Notes under the pieces: model-generated | What the model saw: only the letters and a program-made list of their open reading frames with translations | What the model was told of the DNA's origin: nothing | Database searches by the model: none | Shown: positions 37,487 through 37,828 of the stretch, in pieces | How positions within the stretch are numbered: the stretch's first letter is position 1 | How the letters are laid out: each line of letters starts with the position of its first letter | Program-made: the position numbers and the translations under genes | Assembly (NCBI RefSeq): GCF_001677475.2 | Contig: NZ_CP015229.1 | DNA: 64,000 nt | Origin: Escherichia coli | Lineage (GTDB): Bacteria; Pseudomonadota; Gammaproteobacteria; Enterobacterales; Enterobacteriaceae | Strand: one strand, 5' to 3'

Positions 37487-37828
37487 CGCTGCTCCTGTTA
37501 TTTGTCGTTCGCCTTACAAAATGAAGAAACAGAATCTCCACTTTCATTTTGAAAGCAAACTAACACAGCGAAAGCGGCAAAAAGCGTGATGCATGTCGAA
37601 TATCATCAAAATAACTTACAAAAAATAACTTAATTTGTTTTTAACTTTGCAAGTGAAACCAATGACACCTCTGCATAAATATGAATAAATTCATTTATTT
37701 TTCAATTCATTAAGCTATTTTCGTTGCGATTTTTGGCCCATGATTTTCTTTTCGAATTGTCGATTTTTATTGAAGGATAACTTTCAAAGAAAAATACAAG
37801 GGGCTATAGTGTTACGCATTAAAGGCCA
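37487..37828. promoter_or_regulatory. AT-rich divergent control region between the aldolase-led operon and the regulator/kinase operon
   Basis: 342-bp non-coding; direct repeat AAAATAACTTA at 37608-37618 and 37622-37632; palindrome TGAATAAATTCA at 37682-37693; CRP-like site aGTGA-N6-TgACA near 37661-37676. Confidence 0.4.

Follow-up and report, generated by a model that had tools for sequence, protein, structure and literature searches.

The 342-bp non-coding gap at positions 37487-37828 of the 64,000-nucleotide Escherichia coli sequence that was analysed as a whole (here called the window) corresponds to the intergenic region between tagR and tagY in the D-tagatose island of E. coli. The region has already been published, and possible auxiliary boxes for the regulator TagR are the only new material that is added here. 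The gap very probably comprises a CRP-dependent promoter, Ptag, which is controlled by TagR via the operators tagO1 and tagO2, a near-constitutive promoter, Preg, and a dispensable spacer in between. According to this scheme, the leftward Ptag, a weak promoter with an extended -10 and a poor -35 element, would drive tagYABCDE and would depend on cAMP-CRP bound at 37585-37600, in a class II-like position centred at -42.5. TagR would shut off Ptag via two AgaR-like boxes in inverted repeat, tagO1 over the transcription start and tagO2 at +20 to +38, and tagatose or a phosphorylated derivative of it would release the repressor. The rightward Preg would permit a low and nearly constitutive expression of tagR and tagK, and the central 130-150 bp would represent a spacer, rich in AT, whose loss has no consequences. 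The features of the region are compiled in Table 1.

The GC content of the gap is 32.7%, compared to 50.3% for the whole window. As had been noticed from the sequence, it is the sole large non-coding gap in the island and separates two divergent operons, which is borne out by the layout of the open reading frames. The eight-gene island is located between accC and yhdT-panF. Starting from accC, genes for an epimerase-like protein, a kinase, an ABC transporter and the aldolase follow on one strand; the opposite strand carries the genes for the DeoR regulator and a second kinase, followed by yhdT. Besides the aldolase gene tagY, the leftward operon encodes a sugar-binding protein, an ABC ATPase, a permease, a tagatose kinase and an epimerase-like protein. 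The same annotation is found in an E. coli genome with 98.8% identity to the window, and family scans together with the match to ECOLIN_RS18695 and RS18700 place the gap between tagY and tagR. With the ECOLIN_RS18695/RS18700 region of E. coli Nissle 1917, the gap shares 93.6% identity. Of 5426 complete E. coli genomes, 1421-1422 (approximately 26%) carry it, i.e. the island is accessory. In this search, one or two matching places were situated on plasmids and not on chromosomes, among them a partial match in NZ_CP173438.1 that covers 24% of the query; perhaps the tag island, whole or in part, is mobile on occasion.

The island and its regulation were described in two studies. Ha et al. (2022, PMC9720028) recognised in it the gene cluster by which E. 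coli Nissle 1917 and the B2 phylogroup utilise D-tagatose, and reported that tagatose induces the first three operon genes (tagYAB) more than 1000-fold and the regulator operon tagRK approximately 2-fold. The gap itself was the subject of Park et al. (2025, Microb Cell Fact 24:158, PMC12226905), who named it Rint. Their dRNA-seq in Nissle 1917 located one start site 64 nt and another 11 nt upstream of tagY and tagR, respectively, and revealed no extra start sites in the gap. The corresponding promoters were named Ptag (-10 TAGTTT, -35 TTTTTG) and Preg (-35 TTCAAA, -10 TATAGT), and a CRP site, TTCGA-N6-TCACG, as well as the two TagR operators tagO1 and tagO2 were predicted. In reporter assays tagatose acted as inducer, whereas glucose and overproduced TagR repressed, and glucose diauxie was shown, too. 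The authors call their model a working hypothesis and state that direct binding is undemonstrated (PMC12226905). The start sites, the induction and the repression by TagR and glucose come from published experiments; the physical occupation of just these sequences by TagR and CRP is inferred. Glucose repression could partly result from inducer exclusion. The original prediction that the gap is a divergent control region under the adjacent DeoR regulator and under catabolite control was correct and is covered by this published work (PMC12226905).

The start sites determined by dRNA-seq in Nissle 1917 were transferred to the window by distance. In the sequence, tagO1, tagO2 and the hexamers of Ptag and Preg lie as far from the start codons as published. 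The Rint of Nissle 1917 and the gap in the window are one locus and agree in flanking genes, hexamers, operators, CRP core and distances to the start codons. However, the window allele has 342 bp and the Nissle 1917 allele 341 bp. They differ in one base of tagO2 (which ends with AAACA in the window and AAAGA in Nissle 1917) and in two bases of tagO1 (GTGGA and GTAAA, respectively), and at Ptag the window reads TGTTAGTTT and Nissle 1917 TGCTAGTTT.

Table 1. Features in the intergenic region between tagR and tagY and its flanking genes. Positions refer to the whole window; the last column gives the cross-genus identity to the window, for which the background is 0.38-0.41.
Feature	Position	Strand	Remarks	Identity
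tagY, aldolase ORF	36650-37486	minus	left flank; class II tagatose-bisphosphate aldolase, heads six-gene operon	
tagO2, predicted TagR operator, CTTACAAAATGAAGAAACA	37513-37531	plus	+20 to +38 of the Ptag transcript; PMC12226905	0.88
tagO1, predicted TagR operator	37537-37555	minus	overlaps Ptag start; PMC12226905	0.89
Ptag transcription start	37550	minus	64 nt upstream of tagY ATG; dRNA-seq (PMC12226905), mapped by distance	
Ptag -10 hexamer, TAGTTT	37557-37562	minus	PMC12226905	
Putative extended -10, TG	37564-37565	minus	together with the hexamer spans 37557..37565 and reads TGTTAGTTT	
Ptag -35 hexamer, TTTTTG	37578-37583	minus	PMC12226905; poor match, 15-bp spacer	
Predicted CRP site, TTCGA-N6-TCACG	37585-37600	minus	PMC12226905; 7/10 core; centre -42.5 from Ptag start	
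Direct repeat, two copies of AAAATAACTTA	37608-37632	plus	copies 37608-37618 and 37622-37632	copy 1 0.91; copy 2 0.76
Box C, candidate half-box, ATAACTTACAAAAAATAA	37611-37628	plus	in copy 1 of the repeat; CTTACAAA core 37615-37622; approximately -72 from Ptag start	
Decayed operator-like site, TGTTTTTAACTTTGCAAGTGA	37636-37656	plus	-96 from Ptag start; overlaps left half of CRP-like element	
CRP-like element, AGTGA-AACCAA-TGACA	37652-37667	plus	judged a chance match	0.34
Palindrome, TGAATAAATTCA	37682-37693		E. coli-specific, in the dispensable spacer	0.39
Box D, candidate half-box, ATAACTTTCAAAGAAAAA	37777-37794	plus	overlaps Preg -35; 83% identical to box C over 18 nt	0.95
Preg -35, TTCAAA	37783-37788	plus	sigma-70 scan and PMC12226905; 16-bp spacer	
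Preg -10, TATAGT	37805-37810	plus	sigma-70 scan and PMC12226905	1.00
Preg start	37818	plus	11 nt upstream of annotated tagR ATG; dRNA-seq (PMC12226905), mapped by distance	
tagR, DeoR/GlpR regulator ORF	37829-38659	plus	right flank; followed by second PfkB kinase gene	

For the cross-genus comparison we used the orthologous regions of Escherichia E69, two Enterobacter isolates, Superficieibacter, three Trabulsiella, Klebsiella spallanzanii and Izhakiella, and in addition a paralogous Lelliottia locus and seven further E. coli alleles. The blocks that are invariant across Escherichia, Enterobacter, Superficieibacter and Trabulsiella are tagO1, tagO2, the GCGTGA half of the predicted CRP site and the -35 and -10 elements of Preg; the same boxes are present in Klebsiella. 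Among nine sequences from five genera, 16 of the 19 columns of tagO2 are invariant, and for tagO1 this is true for 14 of 19 columns across genera. It is this conservation across genera that supports their role as operators. A PWM built from the orthologues of tagO1 and tagO2 gives scores of 21.9 for tagO2 and 26.7 for tagO1, at null percentiles of 11.9 (99th) and 7.7 (95th). The core of tagO1 is a palindrome, CTTTCA-TTT-TGAAAG (37541-37555), and the two operators form a 13-nt inverted repeat (92%). Of their common 8-mer CTTWCAAA, the 64-kb window has four copies, each of them within the gap (37513 and, further to the right, 37615 and 37781 on the plus strand; 37548 on the minus strand), compared to a mean of 0.11 in shuffles of the region, none of 5000 of which contained four matches. 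A metagenome scan for the tagO2...tagO1 pattern returned only two loci, both Escherichia-like, and added no diversity.

The curated family nearest to TagR is AgaR, which was the top NCBIfam match with 105.6 bits, a score below the cutoff of 260. In the alignment, the helix-turn-helix region of TagR is nearly identical to that of AgaR, but the two proteins are only 31% identical. When the K-12 agaR-kbaZ intergenic sequence was read directly for boxes, it turned out to be full of CTTTCGTTT boxes that resemble tagO1: the boxes there read CTTTCGTTTTG, CTTTCGTTTCA and CTTTCATTA, and tagO1 reads ACTTTCATTTTG, so that CTTTC(R)TTT boxes and an AgaR-like helix-turn-helix are found together at the tag locus. 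The AgaR-controlled agaR-kbaZ (agaZ) region of K-12, for which Ray and Larson (2004) are cited, shares with tag a DeoR-family repressor, multiple CTTTC(R)TTT boxes, divergent promoters, the tagatose-bisphosphate aldolase pathway and the control by CRP plus repressor. However, the two systems differ in the sugar, in the transporter, which is of the ABC type in tag rather than a PTS, and in the arrangement of the boxes.

All nine aligned sequences share a TG (CA on the plus strand) two bases upstream of the TAGTTT of Ptag, which suggests that Ptag is an extended -10 promoter and fits the poor -35 hexamer as well as the class II-like CRP position. The -35 of Ptag was missed by a simple sigma-70 scan, which fits an activator-dependent promoter. 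The predicted CRP site, which reads CGTGA-N6-TCGAA on the plus strand, is invariant among eight E. coli alleles, and a CRP-like core is present at the same offset (-42.5) in all tagY-carrying orthologues and in K. spallanzanii. The core is nearer to the consensus in more distant loci, namely TGTGA-N6-GCACG at -40.5 in Izhakiella and TGTGATCAAAAGCACA at -41.5 in the paralogous Lelliottia locus. The site at 37585-37600 matches at 7 of 10 positions, and a shuffled region is expected to contain 1.4 cores with up to three mismatches. The support for the site comes from the conserved GTGA with its partner C and not from the match score. In class II CRP promoters such as galP1 and melAB, CRP is centred near -41.5, and the centre of the predicted site at -42.5 is close to this value. 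The likeness includes the overlap of the CRP core with the -35 region, the poor -35 and extended-type -10 elements and the conserved position; unlike these promoters, the predicted Ptag core reaches only 7/10 in E. coli.

The original prediction had placed the control elsewhere, with the direct repeat and a palindrome as operators of the DeoR regulator and a CRP-like element, aGTGA-N6-TGACA, as the site of catabolite control; neither tagO1 nor tagO2 had been listed in it. We consider this assignment as a whole highly improbable. All three motifs exist, and the direct repeat is modestly unusual, since dinucleotide shuffling of the region yielded an 11-nt direct repeat in 5.8% of cases and in only 0.96% if the copies had to lie within 30 nt. 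The CRP-like element indeed carries two mismatches (8 of 10 core positions), but it sits at 37652-37667, approximately 9 bp to the left of the proposed 37661-37676, and it has a G where the critical C of TCACA is expected. A core with up to two mismatches is found in 14% of the shuffles, and the whole 64-kb window contains 25 of them compared to 27.2 expected. The element is missing from every other genus, and its TGACA half-site is private to the window allele (TGAAA in Nissle 1917, TAACA in GF131, D72 and E2865). Moreover, its centre lies at -109.5 relative to the Ptag start and at -158.5 relative to the Preg start, positions that are unsuited to activation. The palindrome TGAAT-AA-ATTCA is present at 37682-37693 as described and even extends to ATGAAT-AA-ATTCAT (37681-37694). 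Its arms are kept in eight E. coli alleles with a varying centre (AA, TA or AT), but it is lost in Escherichia E69 and all other genera, its cross-genus identity is at background level, it contains no operator box, and inverted repeats with arms of at least 6 occur in 64% of the shuffles. In Trabulsiella, where the gap has only 221 bp, the whole central segment including the palindrome and the CRP-like element is gone, whereas everything else is retained, including operon and regulator as well as tagO1, tagO2 and the predicted CRP site at -42.5. Two of the three proposed motifs, the palindrome and the CRP-like element, are chance motifs, and the spacer in which they lie is dispensable; for genome scanning, they are a case in which a plausible CRP match and a palindrome in an AT-rich gap arose by chance. 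Elsewhere in the window, CRP-consensus cores with one mismatch are located at 13555-13570 (TGTGATCTAAATCACT), 9550-9565, 28733-28748, 42330-42345 and 61375-61390.

The central stretch at 37625-37776, in which the GC content falls to 0.22-0.30, is unconserved and rich in indels, and the central 130-150 bp can probably be trimmed. Such a dip in an accessory island could also be read as a platform for nucleoid proteins (H-NS, Fis or IHF) that silences horizontally acquired DNA, and TGAATAAATT resembles the H-NS high-affinity motif, tCGATAAATT. However, the sequence of the centre is unconserved and missing from Trabulsiella, and low GC is usual in enterobacterial promoter regions, which makes a silencing platform unlikely. 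On reading the sequence around 37604, the IHF consensus WATCAANNNNTTR did not fit. Sigma-70-like matches at 37705-37678 (minus) and 37662-37691 (plus) were rejected as promoters, as no start was mapped there and they are unconserved. An Rfam scan of 36500-39000 at E-values up to 1 returned no riboswitch or sRNA and one meaningless snoRNA match (15 bits at a threshold of 45). A terminator scan found none, the small ORFs in the gap are short, overlapping and mechanical with none of them supported, and the fold of the 64-nt tagY leader (z-score -0.39) indicates no structure.

Among the motifs of the original prediction, only the direct repeat overlaps conserved sequence. It is exact at the positions that had been given, and its first copy is conserved together with the half-box CTTACAAA. 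The spacing of the copies varies among E. coli alleles (13, 14 or 15 bp), which argues against the tandem repeat as functional unit; as originally defined, the repeat is probably not one. The A-run between the copies (37619-37625) has 5 to 7 A among E. coli alleles and looks slippage-like. A third, inverted copy of the repeat unit with one mismatch, AAAATAGCTTA, is located 92 nt downstream at 37711-37721 (minus) and is not conserved in GF131 or E69.

The CTTACAAA box of box C is common to the operators and recurs at the -35 of Preg, where box D is invariant in 15 of 18 columns across genera and in all 18 within E. coli. Tested with the full-operator PWM, boxes C and D scored -3.4 and -4.0, which is below the null, and were rejected as full-length operators; they are therefore claimed as half-boxes only. 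Box C is a candidate for an auxiliary TagR half-site or, alternatively, for a docking region of the RNA polymerase alpha subunit, and box D for an autoregulatory TagR half-site. A third place of this kind is the operator-like site at -96. Here, the window scores 3.8, E. coli GF131 with the commoner TTTTTCAC allele 10.5 and Superficieibacter, at the same offset, 22.8; the window site is weakened by a C-to-A SNP.

Taken together, these elements open the tentative possibility that TagR uses weak auxiliary sites besides tagO1 and tagO2, namely box C, the decayed -96 site and box D, which would permit a repression loop and a weak autoregulation of tagR; we regard this as a plausible refinement, but less likely than not. 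It is favoured by the presence of two further CTTWCAAA boxes in the region, since at least two matches occur in only 0.56% of the shuffles, by the 83% identity of boxes C and D over 18 nt and by the invariance of box D well beyond the -35 hexamer. Furthermore, operator-type matches above the null 95th percentile of 7.7 recur upstream of CRP (approximately at -72 and at -96 to -102) or near the regulator promoter in several taxa (Superficieibacter 22.8, K. spallanzanii 12.2 and 8.2, GF131 10.5, E69 15.3, ENT03 9.6, Lelliottia paralogue 10.0). Sites of this type at -70 to -72 score 8.2 in K. spallanzanii, 7.5 in Lelliottia, 5.9 in Superficieibacter and 5.2 in Izhakiella. The approximately 2-fold tagatose induction of tagRK (PMC9720028) points in the same direction, as does the autoregulation of E. 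coli AgaR, which PMC4694137 states with reference to Ray and Larson (2004). However, in addition to the low full-operator scores, the distance between boxes C and D is unconserved (166 bp in E. coli, approximately 45 bp in Trabulsiella), and the -96 site is not only weakened in the window but also deleted in Trabulsiella and Enterobacter BIGb0383. The conservation of box D possibly reflects just the Preg -35 hexamer and an UP-like A-tract, and that of box C the docking of the alpha subunit upstream of CRP. If the auxiliary sites were real, the published two-operator model would be incomplete, and repressor on both flanks of CRP would loop the DNA and thereby account for the more than 1000-fold control. 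The lineage-specific decay of auxiliary boxes would then tune the tightness of repression across Enterobacteriaceae and among E. coli alleles.

Regarding the regulator side, the -10 of Preg is invariant in all aligned sequences. The annotated ATG of tagR (37829) is unconserved; Superficieibacter has ATT at this position, and other taxa begin one codon later. On the other hand, a block comprising GAG and GTGCC in the 37818-37846 area is invariant across taxa. Because of these two observations, the GTG at 37844 is a candidate start and may represent the real or an alternative start codon of tagR.

In K. spallanzanii (L009, 2487-3000), the TagR orthologue has no adjoining aldolase gene, and a 514-bp gap leads straight to the binding-protein gene. 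This gap has kept tagO1, tagO2 and the CRP site, and it contains six CTTWCAAA boxes, two of which are full copies of ATAACTTACAAAA, 31 bp apart. In Lelliottia nimipressuralis (L011, 2677-3000), a paralogous locus encodes an aldolase with 69% and a DeoR regulator with 38% identity. The architecture is the same as in tag: operator boxes are at +34 and +2, the CRP site at -41.5 is near-consensus, and an operator-type box is found approximately 51 bp upstream of the regulator gene. This suggests that there is a wider AgaR/TagR-like subfamily whose promoters share one design.

The tag island permits B2-phylogroup and probiotic E. coli to grow on the sweetener D-tagatose, and knowing the functional bases aids the engineering of a tagatose switch. 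The set of such bases includes tagO1, tagO2 and the predicted CRP site at -42.5, and the auxiliary boxes may belong to it, too; the palindrome and the CRP look-alike at -109.5 do not. Finally, the TagY of the window has 278 amino acids compared to 284 in every orthologue examined. The difference is an in-frame deletion of six residues (VQRTQI), with the junction near 36997, directly before a conserved 12-residue segment, and it could impair the enzyme and hence the growth of this strain on tagatose.
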